A DNA stretch of 64,000 nt from the IMG/VR virus record IMGVR_UViG_3300032280_000361; one strand, 5' to 3'. Under the pieces are notes generated by a model. That model worked only from the letters and a program-made list of their open reading frames with translations, had not been told where the DNA came from and searched no databases. A program made the position numbers and the translations under genes. This DNA is from a virus. Lineage: Duplodnaviria; Heunggongvirae; Uroviricota; Caudoviricetes. Shown here in pieces: positions 27,766-44,111 of the stretch; the first letter of the stretch is position 1, and each line of letters starts with the position of its first letter.

Positions 27766-30700
27766 TTAGTTAAATAAGTATCTAACTCCCAATTGAATTT
27801 GGAAACGAGAACCAAATCCTACGTTATCTCTGAATGAATCAGTAAACGGAACTTTGTTTCTACCATCTAAATAAGGGAATGAGAAAATAGGTGTCTTACC
27901 ATCAGTATCCAATTTAACAAAGTTAAGTGGAGTTGTTGTGATAGGAACTTGTTGAATACCTAAATCCTTAGATATGAAATTTGTAAAGTTGTAAACATCA
28001 GCTGTGAATCTTAAAGTGTGCTTTGATTCCTTTACTTTGATATAGAAATCTTGTGTAAAGTTCAAATCCAATCTGTTAACCCAAGGTAACACTAATCCTT
28101 GTCTTTCACTCATCATACCTCTACGAGAGTTTAAGTATGGATTGTTTGAAATGAAAGCATCTAATTGATTCCACAATTCAGTTTGTGTTCTTGTATCAGC
28201 TACACCACTTACAGCAGATGCATTGGTTAATTTAATTTGAGATGCATCTTTAGGAACGAAGATTAAATCGTTACCATTGAAACCATCATTATTAATATCA
28301 CCACCATATGTGTAAGAAAGAGAAGATTGAAGAGCGTTAGGAGAAGCTTCATATAATAAACCAATTGAAGTTCTTGTGTTCTTAATCAATTCTTTACCAT
28401 AGTTCACACTAGCAATAATTCTATGAGGTAGGTAGTTATTTGATAAACCTTCCTCAAAGTTGTTAGGGTTAGTACCAGTTGGTCTAGCTCCCCACATTGT
28501 AAATGCAGTTGAACCATTGATTGTAGCATCGGTTGCAGTTTGACGAGTATAAGAAGCGGTTACCGCTAAATCTTTAAATTGTCTTTGTACCTGCAACGTT
28601 CCAAATAAAGTATAACCAATGTTTGCATTAGTCATATAAATTGCGTTACCGATGTTTGGATTTTGTGCAGTTTGTGCCGCTCCAGTTGCATCGTAAACTG
28701 AACGTTTAACGAAACGAATTCTACCATCACTTAATGTTGTGTTACCCTCTGAAGGTAATGCAACGTTTTGGAATACAGTAGCATTGATGTTCTTAATATA
28801 AGTTCCTTCCGCAGTTACTGTCCATCCTAATACTTTCCTATCAACTGCTAATGTAGATTTCCAAACTTGTGGGAATTTGTAATTAGGGTCAGTTACATTA
28901 AGAGAATATGATTTAGATAATCCAGATGTTGGGGTTGGTCTATACTTATCGATATCAGGTGAGAACATATATCCTGTTCCGTTTGTAATAGAACCAAACA
29001 ATGCCATACCACTATTAGATGCCTGATTTGAAATCCATACGAATGGAGGAGGGCCCTGGAATAATCCCGTACCACCTCTTACTTGAGTTGTTAAATCATC
29101 AAACACATCCCAGTTGAAACCAACTCTAGGAGAGATTTGTAATGAAGCCTTAGGTGCTAAACCTGTGTTCAAATTAACTCCACCATAAAATTTATCCAAC
29201 CCATCAACTACCGGATTGTAAAGGAAATTATCAGCAAAAGAAACATAATCAGCTCTAACGCCATAGGTTAAAGTTAGATTATCTTTTACTCTGAATTTAT
29301 CCTGTGCGAATAAACTTAATTCAGTATTCTTTGGTCCAACTAATGGGAAACCACCACTTAAAGAATATGATAAATCATAAACTGCCGCTGCTTTCTTTCC
29401 ATCTGCTGAAGCATAGAAATCAGCTAAACTATTAAAACGATATGCACCTGCAAATGAAGGTGAGAATCCGTTTGAATATTGTTTGAATGAATTTTGCGTT
29501 CCGAATGTAAATTCGTGCTTACCTTTGTATAAATTGAAAATGTTATTCACTTGAATTACATCGGTATTCAATACGTTACCGTATGTAAATCTTTCAAAAC
29601 CGAAAGTTGTATAAGGTAAACCATTGCCATCTAAGATATCCACTTGTGGGAAATTACCATCACTCAATGAGCTTCTGAAATCTCTTAATTGTGTAAATCC
29701 GATTTGTAATTTGTTGTTAGCTGAATTAGAGAAACGAGTATTTAATTCTCCAATTAAGATATCGGCGTTGTTGTTAATTACATAACCACTACCAAAGAAA
29801 GGTAATGCAGTAACTCCTGGTCTTCTACCATTAGATGAGTTAATTGAACCACTATTAGAAGCAGGAATATCAGCTGAAGAACGTAACATTGTATATTTCA
29901 ATGAGAACGAATTCTTATCGTTAATATTCCAATCCAACTTACCAGTCAATCTTTGTGATTTTGAACCATACTGATAACCTTGATATGAACCAGGGTTGTA
30001 TCCGTATTTTTCAATTAAGAACTTTTGTAAAGCATCTAAATCAGCTGCTTTAGCTTGTGAGATATTGATACCATTTGGAGTGTTATTAGCATCAGATGCT
30101 ATCCATTGTGTACCAGGTTCCATTCTTTCTTCTTGCTCACCATTTACAAAGAAGAACAATTTGTTTTTGATAATTGCTCCACCTGCTGTAAATCCTTTCA
30201 AGTCATAAGTGAATGGTTGTTCCGGTAATGTAATATCACCTACTTTGTAACCCTGTAAATCTTTGTTTTTAAAGTATTGATAAACCGAACCAAATGATTG
30301 ATTCTTACCACTACGAGTAACTGTATTCACCGAACCACCAGCGAATCCACCATACTTTACATCAAAAGGAGAAACGTTTACTTGTATCTGCTCAACTGCA
30401 TCTAATGAAATTGGTTGTGCCCCTGTCTGTCCACCTAACGTTCCATCTCCTAAACCAAAAGAGTTGTTGAAGTTAGCACCATCCAAAGTAACGTTGTTTA
30501 ATTGAGAACTCATACCACCGAATGATAAGTTGTTCTGAGAAGGAACTAATTTTACTAAATCTTTCCAACTTCTATTAACGTTTGGAACTCCTTCGATTAA
30601 TTTTCTACTGATAATCTCTTGAGAACCATTACGACTAGAGTTGAATACTTTACTTTGACCAGATGTAACCACCACTTCTTGTAAATCTGTAGTACTCTCT

Positions 30701-31026
30701 TTTAACGTAAAATTAGATTTGTGTGTTTGTCCCAATAACAATGTAACATCGCTTTCAGTTTCAGTTTTGAAACCAACGAATGAAACAGTAATTGAGTAAG
30801 GTCCACCGATTTTTAGGTTAGGAAGGTTATAACGTCCATCAATACGAGTTGAAGTACCATACTTCGTACCCGTAGGTTGGTGAACAGCTACAACAGTCAC
30901 ACCTGGCAATCCAGCTTTACCGTCAGAAATCAATCCCTGAATTTCAGAAGTTGTCTCTTGTGCGTTTGCTCCTAATGATACTAATGTAATCATTATCAAG
31001 AGGAGAAATTTTCCGATTTTTTTCAT
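27766..31026 (-). CDS. TonB-dependent receptor (Oar-type, N-terminal carboxypeptidase-regulatory-like domain)
   Basis: Signal peptide; LQEVVVT TonB-box-like; LDGANFNNSFG, SPFDVKYGGFAGGSVNTVTRSG plug; SPRVGFNWD; C-terminal QLGVRYLF; start placed at MKKIG. Confidence 0.92.
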   Translation of the reverse strand: MKKIGKFLLLIMITLVSLGANAQETTSEIQGLISDGKAGLPGVTVVAVHQPTGTKYGTSTRIDGRYNLPNLKIGGPYSITVSFVGFKTETESDVTLLLGQTHKSNFTLKESTTDLQEVVVTSGQSKVFNSSRNGSQEIISRKLIEGVPNVNRSWKDLVKLVPSQNNLSFGGMSSQLNNVTLDGANFNNSFGLGDGTLGGQTGAQPISLDAVEQIQVNVSPFDVKYGGFAGGSVNTVTRSGKNQSFGSVYQYFKNKDLQGYKVGDITLPEQPFTYDLKGFTAGGAIIKNKLFFFVNGEQEERMEPGTQWIASDANNTPNGINISQAKAADLDALQKFLIEKYGYNPGSYQGYQYGSKSQRLTGKLDWNINDKNSFSLKYTMLRSSADIPASNSGSINSSNGRRPGVTALPFFGSGYVINNNADILIGELNTRFSNSANNKLQIGFTQLRDFRSSLSDGNFPQVDILDGNGLPYTTFGFERFTYGNVLNTDVIQVNNIFNLYKGKHEFTFGTQNSFKQYSNGFSPSFAGAYRFNSLADFYASADGKKAAAVYDLSYSLSGGFPLVGPKNTELSLFAQDKFRVKDNLTLTYGVRADYVSFADNFLYNPVVDGLDKFYGGVNLNTGLAPKASLQISPRVGFNWDVFDDLTTQVRGGTGLFQGPPPFVWISNQASNSGMALFGSITNGTGYMFSPDIDKYRPTPTSGLSKSYSLNVTDPNYKFPQVWKSTLAVDRKVLGWTVTAEGTYIKNINATVFQNVALPSEGNTTLSDGRIRFVKRSVYDATGAAQTAQNPNIGNAIYMTNANIGYTLFGTLQVQRQFKDLAVTASYTRQTATDATINGSTAFTMWGARPTGTNPNNFEEGLSNNYLPHRIIASVNYGKELIKNTRTSIGLLYEASPNALQSSLSYTYGGDINNDGFNGNDLIFVPKDASQIKLTNASAVSGVADTRTQTELWNQLDAFISNNPYLNSRRGMMSERQGLVLPWVNRLDLNFTQDFYIKVKESKHTLRFTADVYNFTNFISKDLGIQQVPITTTPLNFVKLDTDGKTPIFSFPYLDGRNKVPFTDSFRDNVGFGSRFQIQLGVRYLFN

Positions 31027-31063
31027 GTGTTTTTTGTTTTTGTTTAATTGTTTATGTGTATAT

Positions 31064-31097
31064 AAAAATAAAGGGTGAGGGATACACTCCCCCACCC
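31064..31097 (-). terminator. Intrinsic terminator inside the receptor 5' leader
   Basis: GGGTGGGGGA-GTGTA-TCCCTCACCC then TTTATTTTT. Confidence 0.7.
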
Positions 31098-34559: not shown

Positions 34560-35210
34560 TTATTTGTGTATATATTGATAATCCCACGCATCCTTCTTTA
34601 CGTTCCTCATCGCCTTTCCGAACAGGTCTCCGTTTATCTGAAACCAACAATTATAACACAACATTCTAAGGTTATCGTATTTGTGGTTTCTTCTGTTTCC
34701 GTCCATATAATCCAAAAGAAGTGGAACTTTATTATCCGTTACTCTCGGTTCATCGTATCCACAATTGGCACAGACTTGAGGCATATATCCCGAAGATAAC
34801 AATCTTTTTTTTAATTTCCAATTCGGATATGAAGGATTGTTTCCCTCCAATATGTTTTCCAACGCCCAACTCTTTCTCCCTTTGTTTAGTTTCTTAATCC
34901 CTACCCCAGCTTCATTCTTACAATTCTCAAATACCCCATACATCTTAGCATACTTCTTATAGGTTGGATAACTCACCCCCAATAAACGGGCACAATGTTT
35001 AGCCGATTGAGCCTGTTTCTGCATATCCTCTATTTCCGATTGTAATAGTTGACGTGATAATCTACCCTGTCTTAGGATTCCCCCAACCGGTTTATCAACT
35101 CTGTTTCTCTCCGCTTCTTCTTTGGCTAATTTGTCGTAGTAATCTTTGTAATTGGCGTTTGTGATAAACACCTTTTCGACCTTTTTGTCGTCTTCTTCAT
35201 TTTCACTCAT
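34560..35210 (-). CDS. HTH plus degenerate HNH-like zinc-binding domain protein
   Basis: ARLLGVSYPTYKK; CANCG..LDYMDGNRRN..NLRMLCYNC. Confidence 0.7.
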   Translation of the reverse strand: MSENEEDDKKVEKVFITNANYKDYYDKLAKEEAERNRVDKPVGGILRQGRLSRQLLQSEIEDMQKQAQSAKHCARLLGVSYPTYKKYAKMYGVFENCKNEAGVGIKKLNKGRKSWALENILEGNNPSYPNWKLKKRLLSSGYMPQVCANCGYDEPRVTDNKVPLLLDYMDGNRRNHKYDNLRMLCYNCWFQINGDLFGKAMRNVKKDAWDYQYIHK

Positions 35211-36210: not shown

Positions 36211-37275
36211 CTATTGTATATAAGCATTCAATTCATATTCATTTTGTCCACCATGTAAACTTCTTGTTTTAGAATTATCTGAATTTCTCTTATAAGTTCC
36301 CATACCATAAACTTGAATATGAAGATGTTTCTTTTGTGGTTTACCATCTTTAGTTAATTGGATAGAAAATCTATTTGTTTTTCCATCGGATGGTTTTTTA
36401 GGCCCCATTCCTATTTGTCTAAAAGCATCTTCATCATCTATTTCATATCCTTTTTTTTCTGCATATTCTCTAGCTGATTGAATTGCCGATGTATATGTGT
36501 AGTGATATACCGGATAATCTGATTTTGCTTCTTCCATTACACCCTTAAGTCTCATTGATTCATTCTTCATATATCCTTTGTTATCGAATACAGATTGAAT
36601 CTTATCTGCTTCTTTATGGAAACCATTCATTCTTAATGTGAATGCAATACCATCTGCTGCTTCAACTCCACCCCATCCAGAAGATGCTGCTACTTTTCTA
36701 CCGAATTCATGTGCATTATCATCACCTCCCCAATATTCGGAACTATCTACTCCATTCTTTCTTATATCAGCCATTTTCTCCTTATACTTAGGGTCATCCA
36801 TTGATGGGTAGTTTACTTTCTTAGCCCACTCAGGTTTACCTTCAATTGATGCAACTAATTCTCTAGCTTCATCGTGGAAATTAGCATCAGTTAAAGCCTC
36901 AACTGCTGCCTGATACATTACTTTTTTATATCCTTCGTTACCCAACTTCTGTGGAGTAATTCCAAATTTCTCTGCCGCTGCTTTAGCTTCTTTATTTACT
37001 TTTGGATTACCTGGTCTTTTTTTAGCTGGCTCTGATTTAGGTTCTTCCTTTTTAGGTTCTTCCGCTTTTTTAGGTTCTACTTTTTTAGAACTTGCAGAAG
37101 CTCCACCTTTAGGTTTAGATACCGAATCTGATTTTTTAGAAGCTTCACCAGCAGTTGTTTCTTTACCTGCTATGTTTACCTTCGTAGTATCTCTCACTTT
37201 GTGCTTCTCTTTATAAGCATCAAATGCTGCTTGAGAGCCAAAATTTATTTCACTTAATAGTTGCTTTAAATTCAT
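36211..37275 (-). CDS. Mosaic protein, putative head-internal polyprotein
   Basis: MNLKQLLSE leader and an internal second leader NESMRLKGVMEE. Confidence 0.55.
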   Translation of the reverse strand: MNLKQLLSEINFGSQAAFDAYKEKHKVRDTTKVNIAGKETTAGEASKKSDSVSKPKGGASASSKKVEPKKAEEPKKEEPKSEPAKKRPGNPKVNKEAKAAAEKFGITPQKLGNEGYKKVMYQAAVEALTDANFHDEARELVASIEGKPEWAKKVNYPSMDDPKYKEKMADIRKNGVDSSEYWGGDDNAHEFGRKVAASSGWGGVEAADGIAFTLRMNGFHKEADKIQSVFDNKGYMKNESMRLKGVMEEAKSDYPVYHYTYTSAIQSAREYAEKKGYEIDDEDAFRQIGMGPKKPSDGKTNRFSIQLTKDGKPQKKHLHIQVYGMGTYKRNSDNSKTRSLHGGQNEYELNAYIQ

Positions 37276-37289
37276 TTTATCTTAATATT

Positions 37290-37562
37290 TTAAAATCCTA
37301 TTGAAATGTTATTTCCTAAATCATCTTCTACCCAACGAGCTTTTGCTGCTATTAATTTTTTCATAGTATCAACATCAAATCTATATGCACCATGCCCACC
37401 TTGTATTTTTATAGCAACAATATATCCATGTATTCCACTCCAAATTACATCAGCCTTTCCACCAATGATTCCTTCAAATGCTTTAATTTGCTTTTGCTTA
37501 ATAGAATCTAATTCTTTGAATTCGATTTCAGATGCTTCGTTTAATTGAGATAATCTTATCAT
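37290..37562 (-). CDS. Small protein with MIRLSQLNE leader
   Basis: N-terminal leader motif. Confidence 0.55.
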   Translation of the reverse strand: MIRLSQLNEASEIEFKELDSIKQKQIKAFEGIIGGKADVIWSGIHGYIVAIKIQGGHGAYRFDVDTMKKLIAAKARWVEDDLGNNISIGF

Positions 37563-37563
37563 A

Positions 37564-39267
37564 TTAATTACTAAATTGTGCTATTACTTTTTTCTGAATA
37601 GGATTGCCTGGCTTTCCAACTAATGCTGTTACAAAATCCATTCTATCTTTCAATCCACCTTTCTTCAAAGATAGATATAATTTATTTGAATTTATATTAT
37701 TCTTTTCTATAAAATCTTTAACTGCGTTTGCTCTAGAAGCAGTTAAACCTGCTATACCATTTGCATCCGCATTTATATCTTCGTTAATATGATGTTCATG
37801 CACTCCACCACATCCACAATCATGATTCTCATTACATCCACAATCATGCTCTTCGTTTACTGATTCATTAAATCTAGAGTCAGCCTTTACTCTTTTTACA
37901 ATATCATCGATTGTATTTACATAAAAATCGTTTCCTTTACTAGGTTCTACCCACCAATCAGTTCCTCCGGATTCATAATCCATTTGAAAATTTCCCCACA
38001 CATATCCATTTTTGTATATAGTATGTGTTTTTGAAGGGCCTTCAGATTTAAGTTCTATATCTCCTACTTTAAGAATGTATCCTTTTTTATTATTTTTTTG
38101 CCAAGTATCTGCAAGTTTACCTTCGTTTATCGATTCTTTAATTGTAGATTTTAATTTAGATAACTCTCCTTTTAATTTAGAATCTAATCCTCTTTCAATT
38201 CCCCAATTAAATGATGCCTTAACTAACATATCTAATGGTAAGTTACTATTCTTTTTGCCAAATGGTGAAGTTCTAATCCAATCAATATAGTGTTGTGCTA
38301 ATTCTTTTGACATTTTAGTTCCTTCTGCTCTAGAAGAATCTCCGTTAACTACAGATTGTAATATTTTGGTAGCCATTCCATGAGCACCTTCGTTTACTGA
38401 TTCGTTTCTTTTATCTAATTCGAAGTATATTTTATTTTTAACTTTCTGAAATGTATCAGCTGCCAATTTAGCATTACCAACAAATCCCATTTCTAAACCA
38501 ATATCTTTTGAACGAACACCTTTTTTAGCTAACGCCATAATTTGTGCCGCAACTGGTTTAGATACTACTTGTGTTGGAGTATCTACGTGAATAACATGCT
38601 TAAACTCTTCAGTTACTACAGATTCCATTTTTGAACGAATCTTACTTGCTATATTTGATAGTTGAGATTTATCGATTCCAATTGCATCTATTACCTGTGC
38701 AAGTAATTGTAATTTAGCGTTATTACTTAACTTTGAATCCTTTATTTTTTCAATAGCCAATTCCAATTTAGCTTTTACAGCTGCAGGTATTGTTGCTGGT
38801 GGTAATTCAGTTGCATCCTCTTTTACTGAACTGTATTTTTCTCTGATTTCTTTTAAACCCAACTCATCTTCAAATTCGATTATATCTTTGTAATCTGCAT
38901 CAAAAAGTTCCTCTTCTACATCTTTTCTACTTGCTTTAGGGTTTTTACATACAACTGCACCTATTTTCTTTTTAGTGAATGAACCACCTCTATCATACAT
39001 TTTCATAATATGCTTAAAATGAACATCGTTACCACTCATTTCATTCATACCACTCTTTTCTCTAATTACTTCTCTCACTACAGATTTAAGTTGTTCTTTA
39101 ACATGGTCAGGTAAACCATCGTGCTTAGTAGATGCAAAATCTTTAGCATCACTATCTTTCATATCCGCTGATACCTTTGCCACCTCCGGTGATGCAGGAG
39201 TTTTTCCCTTATCAGCGGCGTGAACCATTCCCATAAATCGTTGTTGTGCTTTACTTGCTGCTGGCAT
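37564..39267 (-). CDS. Mosaic polyprotein with ESVNE-type linkers; N-terminal DUF3008-like module
   Basis: MPAASKAQQRFMG..DFASTKH..LP; linkers SSVKE, ESVVTE, ESVNE, ESINE, ESVNE, HINE. Confidence 0.6.
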   Translation of the reverse strand: MPAASKAQQRFMGMVHAADKGKTPASPEVAKVSADMKDSDAKDFASTKHDGLPDHVKEQLKSVVREVIREKSGMNEMSGNDVHFKHIMKMYDRGGSFTKKKIGAVVCKNPKASRKDVEEELFDADYKDIIEFEDELGLKEIREKYSSVKEDATELPPATIPAAVKAKLELAIEKIKDSKLSNNAKLQLLAQVIDAIGIDKSQLSNIASKIRSKMESVVTEEFKHVIHVDTPTQVVSKPVAAQIMALAKKGVRSKDIGLEMGFVGNAKLAADTFQKVKNKIYFELDKRNESVNEGAHGMATKILQSVVNGDSSRAEGTKMSKELAQHYIDWIRTSPFGKKNSNLPLDMLVKASFNWGIERGLDSKLKGELSKLKSTIKESINEGKLADTWQKNNKKGYILKVGDIELKSEGPSKTHTIYKNGYVWGNFQMDYESGGTDWWVEPSKGNDFYVNTIDDIVKRVKADSRFNESVNEEHDCGCNENHDCGCGGVHEHHINEDINADANGIAGLTASRANAVKDFIEKNNINSNKLYLSLKKGGLKDRMDFVTALVGKPGNPIQKKVIAQFSN

Positions 39268-39276
39268 CTTTTAGAA

Positions 39277-39540
39277 TTATTTTAATGTTACTTTGAATTT
39301 TTGCTCAGCTAAAGGTAGAAATACATCATATTCAGCATCATCTGTAATAGTGAAATTTTCCGTTAATTGAGTTGGAGTAACATAAATAAGAGTTCCTTCT
39401 GGATTTTCATCGGTTACCAAAAAACAATCGATAAGGATTGCACCTTCTTCAGCATATGTTCCATCAAATAAAACTTGACTCTCTGCTACCTCTTCGGTAA
39501 TTGGTTTATGGTTTTCTAATTTGAATTCTGATATTGTCAT
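39277..39540 (-). CDS. Small acidic hypothetical protein
   Basis: 87 aa; TATTTATA upstream. Confidence 0.6.
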   Translation of the reverse strand: MTISEFKLENHKPITEEVAESQVLFDGTYAEEGAILIDCFLVTDENPEGTLIYVTPTQLTENFTITDDAEYDVFLPLAEQKFKVTLK

Positions 39541-39573
39541 AATATAGTGTTTTCTTGTATGTGTATATAAATA

Positions 39574-40269
39574 TTATACTATTGAATTAAAGTAATTTTC
39601 TTCGAATAATATACCGGTTAATATTGTATATCTATGAAAATCTTCTGTTTTTATAGGAGTTACTGAATGTTTAGGGTTTATATGCATAAAATCTAATACT
39701 GCAAAGTTACCAAATAGAGGTTGTTGCTTATCAACTCCTTCGATTACTAACTCTCCGCCATCCTCTTCTTTCCAATCATCGTTTAGATAAATAAGTATAT
39801 TACACACCATTCTTTTTCCACCTCCATCAGCATGCGGTTCTATCCAACATCCTTTATTGAAATGAGTAAGGTTTACATTACTTTCGTTTATTTCCCAAAT
39901 TTTATCCATCATATCCTTACCATATGAATACTTAAATACCTCTAAGAATAAGTTTCTCATAGTAGGTATTAAACTCATTTTAAGGTGCGACATTTGGTTA
40001 TCTTCAGTACCCCAAGTAAAGAATGTTTGCCAAAGTTTACCATCCTTATTTCCATCTAAATGCATGTTTTTAACCCCTTCCGCTTCTTCATAACTATTTG
40101 TTTGAGTAGCTTCGTAAGGAACATTCTTATAATATGAATGGGTTACTCTAGTAAAGTTTTCAGGATTCCTAATAGATTTAAGTTTTTCTAACTCTTCTAT
40201 TAGTGATGGGTTTATATCAGAAAGATGTCCAAACAGACATCCTTTAGTTGTTAATTCTTCTCTAACCAT
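39574..40269 (-). CDS. 2OG-Fe(II) oxygenase (prolyl-hydroxylase-like)
   Basis: HAD, ILIYLNDDW..DGGEL, HSVTP, R. Confidence 0.85.
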   Translation of the reverse strand: MVREELTTKGCLFGHLSDINPSLIEELEKLKSIRNPENFTRVTHSYYKNVPYEATQTNSYEEAEGVKNMHLDGNKDGKLWQTFFTWGTEDNQMSHLKMSLIPTMRNLFLEVFKYSYGKDMMDKIWEINESNVNLTHFNKGCWIEPHADGGGKRMVCNILIYLNDDWKEEDGGELVIEGVDKQQPLFGNFAVLDFMHINPKHSVTPIKTEDFHRYTILTGILFEENYFNSIV

Positions 40270-40789
40270 GTTTAACCAATTGGATTTTCTTTCTAATATT
40301 AGGGTACTTATTTAATCTTTTTCTAACTGCATCTACATTCTTAGATGAATCATCTACAAAATAAATATTATCATATCCCTTTCTTTCGATTTCCTTTTCT
40401 ATCCAATCGGCTTTTGATTCTGGATTATTATCCCCTAATGCAACTACGAAAACATCTTTGATTCCGCTATCTCTTATGAAATTATATACAGGTTGGTATG
40501 CGGCTCTTGCAGTTAAAATATACACTGCTCTATCAGAGGTTGCCGCCATATTCTTAAGTAATTGGAAATATCCCTTAATTACCTTTGGATTCTTTACTTT
40601 ATCAAAATCTTTGAAATCATACACATCTCCTGGTTTCTCTTTGTAAACCGCATATTGTCCAGGTGTAAGTTTGGATTTTGCTCCATTCTTATGTGTAATA
40701 TAAATAAAGGATGTAGTTTTTACTAAGGTATCATCAAAATCGAATACCCTAAGTTTCTTATCTTCTGTAAATAAACTTCTAGCTATCAT
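40262..40789 (-). CDS. HAD-superfamily phosphatase
   Basis: FDFDDTL, ILTAR, K, FVDDS..N; start placed at MIARS. Confidence 0.85.
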   Translation of the reverse strand: MIARSLFTEDKKLRVFDFDDTLVKTTSFIYITHKNGAKSKLTPGQYAVYKEKPGDVYDFKDFDKVKNPKVIKGYFQLLKNMAATSDRAVYILTARAAYQPVYNFIRDSGIKDVFVVALGDNNPESKADWIEKEIERKGYDNIYFVDDSSKNVDAVRKRLNKYPNIRKKIQLVKHG

Positions 40790-40792
40790 AGT

Positions 40793-40824
40793 CAAATATA
40801 GTGAATTATTCACAGACTTCCAAG
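40793..40824 (-). promoter_or_regulatory. Bacteroidota-type promoter
   Basis: CTTG-N20-TATATTTG, 3 nt before ATG. Confidence 0.65.
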
Positions 40825-40825
40825 T

Positions 40826-41140
40826 TTATCCGTTAATTTGTTTCCTAGTCTTTGGTAGTGATTTTTCTAACTTATCGTTTTCTTTGGTAAGGAATTCAAC
40901 TTTAACACTTAATGCCGCCACTTCTCTTGTAAGTTCTAACACCATAGTACGAAGTTCATCTTTCTCTTTTGAACTATTTTCTAATAAGGCTTCCAATTTA
41001 GAGATACGGTCTTTACAATCGTGTCTGATAAACTCATCATCCCTATCTTTGTTTAGTGCTCTCTTTTCGTAGTATCTCCAAGCACCAGTTCCTCCTAATA
41101 CGGTAATTGCCGTAATTAATACTGAATATAAGTTTTCCAT
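40826..41140 (-). CDS. TM plus coiled-coil protein
   Basis: N-terminal TM, heptad-rich C-terminus. Confidence 0.6.
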   Translation of the reverse strand: MENLYSVLITAITVLGGTGAWRYYEKRALNKDRDDEFIRHDCKDRISKLEALLENSSKEKDELRTMVLELTREVAALSVKVEFLTKENDKLEKSLPKTRKQING

Positions 41141-41403
41141 TATCCTTCTATTTTTACACCTTGTAGGTATGTTCCGATTTTATCATCATATTTCATAACA
41201 TAATGAATTCCATCCATTCCAATATGTTTATTATATTTAGGAATTTTAGACCACTCTTTTTTAGTAATAGTATGCTTTAATTTATCCTCATTAACAACTA
41301 TTTCTTCTTCCTCTACTTTTTCTACTACAGGAGTGGGGGAATTTCTACTCATCCCTAAAGAAGGAAGAGTTACTATACTATTTACTATATCCATTAATCT
41401 CAT
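41140..41403 (-). CDS. Small protein with MRL leader and VNE junction
   Basis: MRLMDIV; IVVNE. Confidence 0.55.
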   Translation of the reverse strand: MRLMDIVNSIVTLPSLGMSRNSPTPVVEKVEEEEIVVNEDKLKHTITKKEWSKIPKYNKHIGMDGIHYVMKYDDKIGTYLQGVKIEG

Positions 41404-41410
41404 TGTAGTA

Positions 41411-42364
41411 TTATTTTATGTTTTTTAATCTTAATGATTCTGCTTTGAATGGGTTAAATAATCCTCTGCTATTCACTTCTTTTTCAGTAGATGGTGCTAC
41501 TTTTGCATTCTGCTGATGTTTGTGTTTGATTGGATTGTATTTTTCTAATTCATCAACATCAACATTACCATCCGCATCTGTTTTAACCTCACCATATTTA
41601 TCATCACCCAATCTTACGATACCAACTGTCTTTGTTCTTGTATTATAAACTAAATCATCTTTTTTGAATTTACCTTCGTTTACTGATTGTTCTTTTTTTA
41701 GTTTACCTAAAGTTCTTTGTTTTAGTATTTTTTTTAAATCTGCAATTAATTCCTCGTTACCCTCATATCTACTAAGGTTTATAATCATATCAGTTATTGC
41801 ATCTTTAGAATAGTTATCCAAGTTTTCGTTTACTGATTCTAATTTCAAACTTCTCTGTGCATTAGTTAAACCACTAATAATAGATTTCAATCCACCTTTA
41901 ACTCCTTCGGTATCTCTATCTTTAACTCTTTTATCTAAAATCTTTGTATTCATTTTTAGAAAGTTAATGATTGCGTTTTCAACTGCATTCCATCTAATTT
42001 CTTCTTCATTTACCGATTCAGCATTTAAAGTAGGGAATCTATCTGCTCCATTAATACCGGCTTCGTTTGTTCCGTATTCGTGATAGTTAGATGATGCTTG
42101 AGAAATTAAGTTTTCTGCTTTAGCGATATGGTCTTGAATCCAAGCAGGAATTTCTTTTTCATTTTTACCCATTTTAGCTTTTAACTCAGTTGTCATCTTA
42201 ATAATAGTATCCAATGAGTTTTGAGCCATAGAAACTTCGTGGTCTTCTTCCTCTTTAACAATAGTTTCAACTTGTGGTGTAAACGCTCTAGCATATGGGT
42301 TTGATACCACTTGTCCAGGCTTCGCTCCCAATGTCTGCATTATTCCTTTTAAATTCATATTCAT
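41411..42364 (-). CDS. Mosaic polyprotein with ESVNE linkers
   Basis: DHEVSMA..PAWIQDHI module; GTNE, ESVNE x2, QSVNE; ends AESLRLKNIK. Confidence 0.6.
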   Translation of the reverse strand: MNMNLKGIMQTLGAKPGQVVSNPYARAFTPQVETIVKEEEDHEVSMAQNSLDTIIKMTTELKAKMGKNEKEIPAWIQDHIAKAENLISQASSNYHEYGTNEAGINGADRFPTLNAESVNEEEIRWNAVENAIINFLKMNTKILDKRVKDRDTEGVKGGLKSIISGLTNAQRSLKLESVNENLDNYSKDAITDMIINLSRYEGNEELIADLKKILKQRTLGKLKKEQSVNEGKFKKDDLVYNTRTKTVGIVRLGDDKYGEVKTDADGNVDVDELEKYNPIKHKHQQNAKVAPSTEKEVNSRGLFNPFKAESLRLKNIK

Positions 42365-42365
42365 A

Positions 42366-43313
42366 TTATTTATATCTACTTAATATTTTGAGAGATACTT
42401 CTATCATCTTAAACAAACCCATTTTTATCATATTGTCTTTGTTTACGTTTGATAGCCCATTATATATGTTTAAAACAATAGATGCAGTTTGCATATCTAC
42501 TTTTATTTTCTTACCACTTTTTGGGTCTTTTACACTTTGATATTGTTGATTATTAATAATATCTTTTAATTGAGAAATAATTTCTGGTTCGGATGCTTCG
42601 TTTACTGATTCTCCTCTGCCCAATTTATCTTTCATTTTATTCACATCATCTTCCGAAGGTGAACCGTTAATAGAACCACCTGGAAGGTTTAATCCAGTTC
42701 CTGCTGGTAATCCTATTTCATTATTAGGTGATTTGATACCATACCCTTTCTTTATATTAGAAAGTGTTTGTAAAGCATTTTTTAATCTATCTTGAAATAA
42801 TTTCTTTTGTTCAGCAGATTTTGTATCAGATAGTTTTTGCTTCAACGCTTTAATTCTATCGTTTATTTTTTGGATTCTATCTCCTTCTTCACTTTCTTCT
42901 AATCCACCCTCTACAAAGTTTTTGATTTCAGATTTAACTACCATATTATTGATAGCATCTTTGATTTGAGCTTTATTTAATCCGATTACTTTCACATCAC
43001 CTGCTTCATTTGTATATGCCGCATGCTTTAATCCGATATCTTCTAAATACTTAATAAATCTTTCTCCTATCATTGGTTGTTTCTTTTCTTTTGTTTGAGG
43101 TAATCCCTGTGCAACATGCTGAGGTTCTTGACCTTCTTCAGTTTTCCATCCACCACCTGCTGCTTTGTATTGTTTTGAAGCCCAACCGTTTGCATAAGCC
43201 GATGGATATACATCAAACTTCTTTTTTGCCTGAGAAACGTAATACTGCCACTTCGATGGGTTAGTAGGAACATTTTTCTCCGCTACTATGTTCTTTTTGT
43301 TTAATGTGTTCAT
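42366..43313 (-). CDS. Mosaic polyprotein with ESVNE linker
   Basis: KKFDVYPSAYANGW..YK..GGGW module, coiled coil, ESVNE, KVDMQTAS module. Confidence 0.6.
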   Translation of the reverse strand: MNTLNKKNIVAEKNVPTNPSKWQYYVSQAKKKFDVYPSAYANGWASKQYKAAGGGWKTEEGQEPQHVAQGLPQTKEKKQPMIGERFIKYLEDIGLKHAAYTNEAGDVKVIGLNKAQIKDAINNMVVKSEIKNFVEGGLEESEEGDRIQKINDRIKALKQKLSDTKSAEQKKLFQDRLKNALQTLSNIKKGYGIKSPNNEIGLPAGTGLNLPGGSINGSPSEDDVNKMKDKLGRGESVNEASEPEIISQLKDIINNQQYQSVKDPKSGKKIKVDMQTASIVLNIYNGLSNVNKDNMIKMGLFKMIEVSLKILSRYK

Positions 43314-43340
43314 ATTGTATATAAATATATCTTTTTTTAA

Positions 43341-44093
43341 TTAAGATATACTTTCGGTTTTGTTTTTTCCATCACAATGTGCTTTTTGTGAGAAACCTTT
43401 GGGGTTATTACAATCAATTGAGTTTTTATACTCCGCACTCCACTTTTCAACCAATCCTTCACTAGCTCCCGTCTTTACTAATGTTGGTTTTTGTCCCTTC
43501 TTTTGTTCACCACCTTTTTTAGCATCTCCTGCATCGGATTGTGCCGCTCTCTTTCTCTTCACAAATGATGCTCTACCATCCTTACCCAACTTAGCTGATT
43601 TTTCATTTGAAAGGCAAGCTGCATATGCTGAACCCTCCTCACTATCTCCACATTTACCAACTTTTTCTCCCTTAGTGTTATATCTATCCCACCCACCAGT
43701 CTTTCCACTACCAAACCACTTACGAAGGTCTTCTTTTACCGCTAAATCATGTGATGAAGGTAGAACATTTACACCTACCTTTTTACCTAAGAATATGGCA
43801 ATTGGAGTGAATGGAATTGGAGCAGGAATAAACTTAAGTGAAACCAAAAATAATATCTTAACTATATCTCCGGATTGTGCTTTTAGGAATCTTTTCTCAC
43901 TATCACTAACTTCTTTCCCCAATATCATTGATTGAAGGATATGAGCTGCTACGATAGTTTCTTTCTTTTCTCTATTAGTTACCACTTTTAGAGTATCCCA
44001 ATTTGTATTGATATACTTAATAGATTTATCAATCCAATTGGCTACCTTTTCTTTAGCAGTATCAAACACTCCTTCATGTATATTCTTTCCCAT
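43341..44093 (-). CDS. Mosaic protein of small modules beginning after xxE sites
   Basis: VKE-DLRKWF..; LVE-KWSAEYKNSIDCNNPKGFSQKAHC. Confidence 0.55.
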   Translation of the reverse strand: MGKNIHEGVFDTAKEKVANWIDKSIKYINTNWDTLKVVTNREKKETIVAAHILQSMILGKEVSDSEKRFLKAQSGDIVKILFLVSLKFIPAPIPFTPIAIFLGKKVGVNVLPSSHDLAVKEDLRKWFGSGKTGGWDRYNTKGEKVGKCGDSEEGSAYAACLSNEKSAKLGKDGRASFVKRKRAAQSDAGDAKKGGEQKKGQKPTLVKTGASEGLVEKWSAEYKNSIDCNNPKGFSQKAHCDGKNKTESIS

Positions 44094-44111
44094 TGGATAT
44101 AAATATAATAT

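Follow-up and report, generated by a model that had tools for sequence, protein, structure and literature searches.

The neighbouring minus-strand genes at positions 36,211 to 44,093 of the 64,000-nt stretch of DNA analysed here (hereafter the window), from an uncultured myovirus distantly related to T4, probably code for cargo polyproteins inside the phage head, which would be cut at short linkers by a Peptidase_S77 prohead protease and whose cassettes would be swapped at the same linkers. Taken as a whole, we hold this explanation to be likely, though well short of certain. Each polyprotein would be a chain of cassettes that fold independently and measure about 24-143 aa. The sites between them are of the hydrophobic-x-Glu type, most often E-S-V/I-N-E with Gly, Ala, Ser or Glu as the next residue, and fit the cleavage specificity of the clade's prohead protease, which is of the T4 gp21 type. 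Conserved end modules (in the 567-aa protein the DUF3008 N-terminus and the C-terminal module, in the 317-aa protein the N-terminal one) probably carry the string into the prohead core, where the protease would cut after each Glu and free the cassettes within the capsid, as for the leader-tagged internal proteins of T4. Cassettes would be gained, lost and exchanged in frame between genes and phages by recombination at the linker, and descent through this recombination would explain why linkers joining unrelated cassettes have the same 15-nt word. Cleavage, packaging, release and any injection of the cassettes are what we infer from these comparisons.

The linker word is GAATCAGTAAACGAA, and the window holds four exact and three near copies of it (1-2 mismatches) in minus-strand genes, all of them in frame and encoding ESVNE (five), ESINE (one) or QSVNE (one). 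They are distributed over three ORFs of 567, 317 and 315 aa, so that the in-frame 15-nt linker across three genes described in the initial annotation was recovered in full. Searching the whole window yielded 8 matches to the 15-mer where 0.27 would be expected by chance, and none of 100 shuffles gave as many; the eighth, at 27836 on the plus strand, lies antisense within another gene and is probably due to chance. No direct-repeat family in the region ranks above the 15-mer, and the sequences on either side of the linkers are unrelated by DNA and by protein. Copies of GAATCRGTAAAYGAA were in frame within a long ORF in every case in the window and in two large relatives, and in 47 of 48 cases in other loci. 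The genes and linker sites are as follows.

36211..37275, minus strand: 354-aa lysine-rich protein with leader MNLKQLLSE, 46-56% identical to head-module genes of relatives
37290..37562, minus strand: 90-aa protein with leader MIRLSQLNE then ASE, whose homologue in relatives comes directly after the protease gene
37564..39267, minus strand: 567-aa polyprotein of about 8 modules (DUF3008 N-terminal module, six internal cassettes, conserved C-terminal module)
37780..37851, minus strand: Cys/His-rich mini-cassette of 24 aa (HDCGC twice, then HEHHINE) between two sites
37852..37866, minus strand: linker ESVNE, exact 15-mer, where homology to relative L001 resumes
38122..38136, minus strand: linker ESINE, 2 mismatches, where homology breaks between L002 and L004 and in many relatives from the database
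38389..38403, minus strand: linker ESVNE, exact 15-mer, where homology to L001 ends
38608..38625, minus strand: degenerate site ESVVTE
38818..38832, minus strand: degenerate site SSVKE, whose DNA has TCAGTAAA in common with the 15-mer
39040..39054, minus strand: degenerate site SGMNE, closing the DUF3008 module
41411..42364, minus strand: 317-aa polyprotein of four modules
41675..41689, minus strand: linker QSVNE, 1 mismatch, preceding a widely shuffled 87-aa cassette
41825..41839, minus strand: linker ESVNE, exact 15-mer, where homology to L001 ends
42005..42019, minus strand: linker ESVNE, 2 synonymous mismatches
42366..43313, minus strand: 315-aa protein with a single ESVNE site ahead of a 76-aa C-terminal cassette
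42597..42611, minus strand: linker ESVNE, exact 15-mer, within the 315-aa protein
43341..44093, minus strand: 250-aa protein with a C-terminal module behind an internal AVKE site (43731-43742)

Besides the 15-mer, modules are delimited by the degenerate sites SGMNE, SSVKE, ESVVTE and HHINE. The modular layout agrees with the earlier description of linker-joined modules of some 40-90 aa; the strict size range does not, the measured modules running from 24 to 143 aa.

The window belongs to a far-T4-like clade whose closest isolate is Flavobacterium phage immuto; ESVNE linkers are absent from this nearest cultured phage. The S77 protease and the head module are known from contigs of relatives and not from the window's own sequence; the relatives' head module was reached from the neck gene of relative G004, and the sequences of G001, G003 and G004 end before it. 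Relatives carry Portal_T4, Peptidase_S77 and Gp23 (in L082, Peptidase_S77 matches PF03420 at 102 bits and phrog_207), and on the L023 contig the protease is 81% identical, with ESVNE polyproteins immediately flanking it. Homologues of the 317-, 354- and 567-aa proteins are located between protease and scaffold, the N-terminal module of the 317-aa protein being 61-75% identical to the gene in that place. The minimal form of the 567-aa gene, 211 aa long, is found in head modules of relatives, and the gene is cassette-expanded in other phages. Residues 3-56 of the 567-aa protein match DUF3008 (PF11450) at 25.8 bits for a curated cut-off of 24 bits; this part matches five PHROG families of unknown function (1e-9 to 1e-19), 157 phage records match it only, and the homologue in cyanophage S-SCSM1 is annotated as a "virion protein". 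In L021-L025 the homologue of the 354-aa protein is fused to the last cassette of the 317-aa protein.

Cassettes were searched by profile and, for the one modelled, by fold, and none received a function. Pfam at E<=1 gave only noise on the cassettes, with no enzymatic or peptidase domain; PHROGs returned only families of unknown function for proteins and cassettes; a search of the Protein Atlas with the 87-aa cassette yielded nothing above 0.79; and no homology to T4 IPI, IPII, IPIII or Alt was detected with Pfam and PHROGs for any protein or cassette. The cassette at residues 294-382 of the 567-aa protein was modelled as a compact helical domain (pLDDT 76), which had no match in the PDB at E<=0.001 with Foldseek and retrieved only generic helical bundles in an Atlas shape search. 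The view that the modules are injected effectors thus found no support from Pfam, PHROGs, Atlas or fold search. It is possible, if on balance somewhat doubtful, that the pieces are instead cleaved scaffold or core material, like T4 gp22, gp67 and gp68, either discarded or serving as DNA counter-ions rather than acting on the host. The homologues occupy the place of the T4 core genes, among portal, protease and scaffold, many cassettes are lysine-rich with a pI of 9-10, and none matches an enzyme or a known anti-defence family, all of which would fit such material. The cassettes are, however, domain-sized, and the one modelled forms a compact fold, unlike the short peptides released from the T4 scaffold; their fast combinatorial turnover, with thousands of variants, is also nearer to that of the diverse internal proteins of T-even phages described as defence-countering (PMC3012670) than to that of conserved assembly parts.

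Turnover was assessed by comparing loci between relatives, among which module order is not invariant and cassettes are heavily gained and lost. Against the closest relative, L001 (93% nucleotide identity), homology ends at 41825 and 38388 and restarts at 37866, giving three junctions at 15-mers, and at these three junctions identity spans the whole word and stops 0-1 nt from it. Breakpoints also fall at linkers in the L028/L029 and L002/L004 comparisons. At the protein level, 31 of 54 breakpoints were at most 4 aa from a linker, for 5-14% expected, and among 150 database representatives 220 of the 316 internal HSP ends (70%) were located at seven hydrophobic-x-Glu sites that span 19.6% of the positions of the 567-aa protein. 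One indel lies off ESVNE: two contigs that are otherwise 100% identical differ by a 43-aa deletion, which starts at NLTE and ends at no evident site. By sequence comparison, then, the recombination-junction reading is well supported, and the proposal that the DNA word acts as a swap junction holds up: module order varies, breakpoints fall at the linker to nucleotide resolution, and codon identity goes beyond codon bias.

For codon identity, the codon usage of the window predicts the exact word for 3-5% of ESVNE peptides, and the probability that at least 4 of 5 ESVNE peptides be encoded identically is 2-4e-4, so that codon bias, which had been raised as an alternative, does not account for the identity. 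In the relatives, the unique xSVNE sites (n=73) use GTA for Val in 69 cases and AAC for Asn in 52, versus 61 and 48 of the 131 other xVNE sites (Fisher 4e-13 and 2e-6), and the variants each differ from the consensus by one transition. Codons vary freely at the protease's own orthologous GKVNE site; translational accuracy was rejected as a cause, since the other xVNE sites, the protease's own included, use background codons. A convergent origin would not yield codon sharing between unrelated flanks, and the linkers must therefore have spread along with the formation of the junctions. Between orthologues, linker codon identity was 73-81% versus 66-81% at flanking conserved residues, so that these comparisons reveal no excess synonymous conservation of the linkers over flanking codons, and neither concerted evolution nor homogenisation of linker variants was seen inside genomes. 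Since linker and flanking codons are about equally conserved and homogenisation is not seen, there is no sign of selection on the DNA word itself, and a word shared by descent through recombination is better supported by these data than a word kept as a recombination signal.

The same two results, together with at least one recent deletion without an ESVNE pair, would also fit a reading in which the protease sites were real and the 15-nt word merely inherited, with no role in recombination and with breaks inside folded cassettes being lost; selection on random recombinants could likewise place breakpoints at domain boundaries. We consider this rather unlikely: random breaks followed by selection would give ragged ends or changed linkers, whereas identity in the closest pair stops sharply at the word, and linkers with unrelated flanks share their codons far above what codon usage predicts.

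That the linkers are cut is suggested by their pattern. All seven fit a cleavage motif in which P3 is hydrophobic, P2 is free, P1 is Glu and the residue after the cut is small. Upstream of cassette 294-382, 21 homologues have Glu at P1 (21/21), V, I or L at P3 (21/21) and G, A or S at P1' (21/21), P2 being variable, and over 150 relatives P1' is mostly A or G. The same cassette is found stand-alone in other phages behind the leader MKHIKLFEQFIAE, which is close to MKTYQEFIAE, the targeting sequence of T4 ipII/ipIII; comparison of the sequences shows the linker to be equivalent to the end of such a T4-like targeting leader. In the window, the 354- and 90-aa proteins have short N-terminal leaders of their own, and in relative G004 the C-terminal module of the 250-aa protein sits behind the N-terminal leader MIKLKSILSE. 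The 567-, 317-, 315- and 250-aa proteins have no T4-like N-terminal leader, which would be 10-20 residues long and end at the cut; their own N-terminal modules may do the targeting instead. The relatives' protease has conserved xNE sites close to both ends, and LLDE/A in their capsid protein aligns with the SFLTE/A stretch of T4 gp23, which we take to be where gp23 is cut, after Glu65. The initial annotation had read the linker as a prohead-protease site, and this is well supported by the S77 protease in the clade, by homologues that lie in the head module or next to the protease, by the residue pattern at cassette boundaries and by the T4-like leader. An uncleaved structural inter-domain linker, unrelated to the protease, seems improbable to us. 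The AlphaFold model of the 317-aa protein, poor overall (pLDDT 42), places the sites between helical hairpins at low confidence, as such a linker would be, and the predicted cleavage is itself drawn from sequence; yet a fixed P1 Glu with a hydrophobic P3, a small P1' and a free P2 is the signature of a protease site, in other phages the same cassette begins right where a cleavable T4-like leader ends, and the protease carries such sites itself.

There are homing-endonuclease-like genes in these genomes (an ORF adjoining a relative's capsid gene looks GIY-YIG-like by eye), but it is highly improbable that the word is the target of a site-specific nuclease or recombinase, or an RNA-level signal, as its copies lie in frame in long ORFs and none is intergenic or out of frame, the flanks have no common structure, Rfam gave no match, and the cassettes are not accompanied by any dedicated enzyme gene. 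The T4 late-promoter word TATAAATA was not enriched in the window (19 versus 16.5 expected).

The internal proteins of T4 are the textbook case of capsid-carried proteins delivered with the DNA, each behind one leader. They comprise IPI, IPII, IPIII and Alt, which have a capsid targeting sequence (PMC3012670, PMC5694885), and polymorphic internal-protein loci of T-even phages are attributed to Repoila et al. (1994) in the same two papers. The polyproteins resemble them in the gp21 / Peptidase_S77 family protease with its hydrophobic-x-Glu cut site, in the near-identical leader of the stand-alone cassette, and in a very diverse cargo, conservation being confined to the element for targeting and cleavage. 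They differ in that up to eight or more cassettes follow a conserved carrier module within a single ORF, that the cut site is repeated internally, that the joint has a common 15-nt DNA word, and that their sequences are not homologous to those of the T4 proteins; as far as sequence can tell, the likeness is one of mechanism and not of cargo ancestry.

In the gp38 adhesins of T-even phages, conserved glycine-rich motifs lie between hypervariable segments and recombination is described in or near the motifs (PMC3157838; Tetart et al., 1998, as cited there). Here too, short conserved coding motifs bound variable segments and serve as preferred in-frame exchange points for a shared library, with exchange endpoints in or next to the motifs, a correspondence of mechanistic class and not of homologous family; the gp38 motifs form the core of one folded tail-fibre-tip domain, whereas the linker is a predicted protease site between separate head-protein domains. 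The arrangement is a variant of T4 internal proteins and of gp38 motif-mediated swapping. PeSL promoter/stem-loop cassettes, which mediate gene shuffling in T4-type genomes (PMC2839356, PMC4122927), are likewise short, repeated, conserved sequences that flank variable units and mark the endpoints of insertion, deletion or replacement, but they are intergenic and regulatory and move whole genes, where the linker is a coding repeat and moves sub-gene cassettes in frame.

Giant phages such as phiKZ and SPN3US have processed inner-head and ejection proteins (PMC5694885, PMC10052503), and share with the present system head-internal paralogous families of variable number, a gp21-related protease and x-x-Glu motifs, some proteins having several candidate sites; theirs are mostly single mature proteins that lose long propeptides, and those papers describe no beads-on-a-string array with cassette exchange and a joint conserved in DNA. 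The polyvalent proteins found in phages and conjugative elements (Iyer et al., 2017; PMC5512222) also combine many unrelated domains in a single polypeptide; they are presumed to be delivered along with the DNA, are sometimes released by proteolysis, and are extensively mosaic. They are large, with recognisable enzymatic domains and often an embedded peptidase, unlike the small unassigned cassettes seen here, with their uniform linkers and a protease acting in trans; the cassette searches turned up neither an enzyme domain nor a peptidase. In the literature we found no mention of DUF3008 or of a phage ESVNE motif.

The T4 scheme would here be multiplied: with a single carrier gene, a single protease and the same joint throughout, a phage could package many small domains and trade them as cassettes. 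This would offer a natural rule for designing capsids loaded with foreign proteins, and a clean, testable case of a short coding repeat organising in-frame domain shuffling. We tentatively raise, as a possibility that we would not call likely, that the 15-nt linker is the working joint of a clade-wide, integron-like exchange through which thousands of related phages share one library of capsid-delivered proteins; any cassette bounded by the word could then recombine in frame into any carrier gene, and one protease would free the whole library, for example of anti-defence factors. The family is large, more than 3000 clusters (defined at 50% identity) matching one of the polyproteins, and if the pieces are injected it would be a large unexplored reservoir of small, first-acting phage proteins. 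When segments were clustered into cassette families, single linkage chained them into one giant component. At E<=1e-3, 3035 cluster representatives matched, and among the best 150 of these the motif was present in 102, with at most 6 copies each and a median spacing of 84 aa.

The minus strand at 36211-44093 holds a closely packed run of ORFs in which the 15-nt word GAATCAGTAAACGAA occurs exactly at 37852, 38389, 41825 and 42597 and with 1-2 changes at 41675, 38122 and 42005, against 0.27 matches expected by chance from dinucleotide-preserving shuffles. Among direct-repeat families in this region it ranks first. The seven copies, whose flanks are mutually unrelated, are all in frame and encode linker peptides (ESVNE five times, ESINE and QSVNE); the four exact and three near copies reported in the initial annotation were thus confirmed, distributed over three genes as follows:

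37564-39267, minus strand, 567-aa ORF with three in-frame word copies
41411-42364, minus strand, 317-aa ORF with three in-frame word copies
42366-43313, minus strand, 315-aa ORF with one in-frame word copy

A one-mismatch match at 27836-27850 (plus strand), antisense in the 3' part of a large receptor-like gene (27766-31095), is probably due to chance.

We compared the codons of the linkers with the codon usage of the window. The GAATCAGTAAACGAA spelling is expected for 3-5% of ESVNE peptides, and the probability that at least 4 of 5 ESVNE share one spelling is 2-4e-4, so that codon bias does not explain the identity. Related contigs were collected from IMG/VR using the 567- and 317-aa proteins as queries. 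At 73 unique xSVNE sites of relatives, Val was encoded by GTA in 69, Asn by AAC in 52 and Ser by TCA or TCG almost throughout. Because other xVNE peptides use these codons less (GTA 61/131, AAC 48/131; Fisher 4e-13 and 2e-6 respectively) and the codons of the orthologous GKVNE site of the protease vary freely, the spelling is a property of the xSVNE linker and not of VNE or cleavage sites generally. Word copies were in frame in long ORFs (all in the window and two large relatives, 47 of 48 in other loci), and variants were without exception single transitions away from the consensus. We rejected a convergent origin of the word, as well as its derivation from diverged ancient tandem copies, since under either the codons would follow usage. 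We read the word as common by descent, with recombination at or beside it having placed it at new junctions. Selection on it as a recombination signal is possible; we limit the claim because codon identity of the linker in orthologous alignments (73-81%) is hardly higher than at neighbouring conserved residues (66-81%), and linker variants are not more alike within genomes than between them.

Module order was not invariant among relatives, in line with the exchange of modules at the word proposed initially. In L001, a contig with 93% nucleotide identity, a single unrelated cassette stands in place of the two that the ESVNE sites at 38389 and 37852 enclose, and the 317-aa protein has its final two modules replaced as well; nucleotide homology stops at 38388 and 41825 and restarts at 37866, each time at the edge of the word. 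In two other close pairs, homology restarts at the word (L028/L029) or breaks within it (L002/L004). Cassettes also pass from gene to gene: the one that ends the 317-aa protein occurs (85-90% identical) in a 354-like protein of L021-L025, and also in a 722-aa protein of L026 and the DUF3008 gene of L089, while one cassette of the 567-aa protein is present in a 317-like gene of L008. Across the ORFs of these loci, 31 of 54 internal breakpoints lay at most 4 aa from a linker (5-14% expected).

With the 567-aa protein as query, a search of 1.84 billion cluster representatives returned 3035 matches (E<=1e-3). Among the best 150 of these 3035, the motif was present in 102, up to six times per protein, ESVNE occurred 194 times, the median spacing of the motif was 84 aa, and 220 of 316 internal homology ends fell at most 5 aa from seven sites covering 19.6% of positions (SGMNE 76, SSVKE 150, ESVVTE 220, ESVNE 293, ESINE 382, ESVNE 472 and HHINE 496). 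The protein therefore comprises about eight modules. Relatives 84-94% identical in the common parts range from 455 to 663 aa, the difference coming from cassette changes. The word is not used in every event: contigs L005 and L011, otherwise 100% identical, are set apart by the in-frame deletion of 43 aa from the DUF3008 gene, starting at an NLTE site, and by a 183-nt indel affecting their homologue of the 250-aa protein (L005 8270-8395 and 3019-3202 for the two differences), which indicates very recent, population-level cassette changes.

The large relative G004 has many proteins in common with the window (50-88% identity), and its neck gene was used to find the head modules of the clade. Portal_T4, a Gp23 capsid protein and Peptidase_S77, of the T4 gp21 family, are encoded there. 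By capsid protein, Flavobacterium phage vB_FspM_immuto comes closest among cultured phages (52% identity); next are Microcystis phage Mel-JY01 and Rhodothermus phage RM378. Because of these genes and capsid relatives we place the window's phage as a distant T4-like myovirus, plausibly with a host in Bacteroidota. Between protease and scaffold, these head modules encode homologues of the first module of the 317-aa protein (61-75% identity), of the 354-aa protein (46-56%) and of the DUF3008 start and last module of the 567-aa protein. On contig L023, ESVNE-bearing ORFs directly adjoin the protease gene on one side, with homologues of the 90- and 354-aa proteins on the other. Judging from gene order, the linker-bearing genes and their neighbours are predicted to belong to the phage head. 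The shortest DUF3008 gene (211 aa) consists of DUF3008, ESVNE, one module, SVINE and the last module, and in other phages the gene at this position carries two to four added ESVNE-bounded cassettes; the 567-aa protein is one of these lengthened forms. Cyanophage S-SCSM1 has the DUF3008 unit as a gene of its own, 69 aa long and annotated as 'virion protein'.

The neck gene was present on >590 viral contigs (loci L056-L135), many of which end no more than a few kb upstream of it, and three large relatives (141-207 kb) are likewise without a head module, which suggests a recurrent assembly break or genome end close to the head genes. The immuto gene that separates protease from capsid (L136:7731-8972) is annotated as 'DNA polymerase phi-like' but, judged by position, more likely encodes the scaffold protein; the acidic, repetitive composition is that of the scaffold ORFs at this position in relatives L060, L080 and L082.

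T4 gp21 takes N-terminal leaders off internal and capsid proteins and fragments core proteins (PMC5694885). We aligned 26 database homologues of cassette 294-382 of the 567-aa protein, 21 of which have upstream sequence. In 21/21, P1 was Glu, P3 was Val, Ile or Leu, and the first residue of the cassette was Gly, Ala or Ser, with P2 varying (N, T, K, A, F). Homologues of this cassette lead several proteins, behind MKHIKLFEQFIAE, MKHIKTFESFLNE or MQKFTEFVNE; the N-terminus of T4 ipII and ipIII is MKTYQEFIAE. Since the same cassette comes first behind a T4-like leader elsewhere, the internal ESVNE occupies the position at which a T4-type capsid targeting leader ends. The same equivalence holds for the module of the 250-aa protein that follows AVKE, which in G004 lies behind the leader MIKLKSILSE. 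The LLDE/A of the clade capsid protein aligns with the SFLTE/A stretch of T4 gp23, where gp23 is cleaved, after Glu65. GKVNE/D and VP(V/M)NE/S are conserved close to the two ends of the clade protease. The linker thus looks like a prohead-protease site: the initial proposal of such sites gains from the motif pattern, the leader equivalence and the S77 protease of relatives, with cleavage itself predicted by comparison. On the 256-kb T4-like contig G002, a Gp23-family capsid protein (L032:1426-2898) starts with MAQLINE then A, so that an xINE site closes a very short leader; this contig also has one cassette of the 567-aa protein within a 758-aa ORF.

The cassettes had no match in Pfam, PHROGs or Atlas that would indicate a function. 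Cassette 294-382 was modelled as a compact helical domain (pLDDT 76), for which structure search returned no informative neighbour. Many cassettes are basic. The cassettes may be effectors that are injected, internal proteins associated with DNA, or core material. A 24-aa Cys/His-rich mini-cassette (37780-37851, minus strand), with two HDCGC followed by HEHHINE, has a predicted cut site on either side and is nearly unchanged in many relatives in varied contexts (L082:2800-3870, L089:3436-4395, L060:2568-3245). Relatives have other mini-cassettes of CGCGCGCG type and PCW...CVP type. Were the mini-cassettes released, the products would be small peptides, possibly able to bind metal.

The closest known systems are the internal proteins of T4, which have a targeting leader and polymorphic loci (PMC3012670, PMC5694885), gp38 adhesins recombining at conserved coding motifs (PMC3157838), gene shuffling mediated by PeSLs (PMC2839356, PMC4122927), inner-head proteins that are processed in giant phages (PMC5694885, PMC10052503) and polyvalent proteins (PMC5512222). 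Our literature search found no paper on cassette polyproteins of this type; what appears new is many cassettes as beads on a string in one ORF, a repeated internal site also serving as exchange joint, and the family's size. A cassette-polyprotein arrangement akin to known systems is well supported at the level of sequence, and its biochemistry is predicted.

Elsewhere in the window, a 216-aa ORF (34560-35210, minus strand) has a Cys-rich C-terminal stretch that may be HNH-like, judged by eye, with no Pfam match at E<=0.001. The T4 late-promoter word was not enriched within the window. A motif (GTATATAAATAT on the plus strand) occurs at 39562-39574, 43316-43328 and 44094-44106, shortly before the 87-aa, 315-aa and 250-aa genes start, and could be a promoter or translation-start context specific to the clade.
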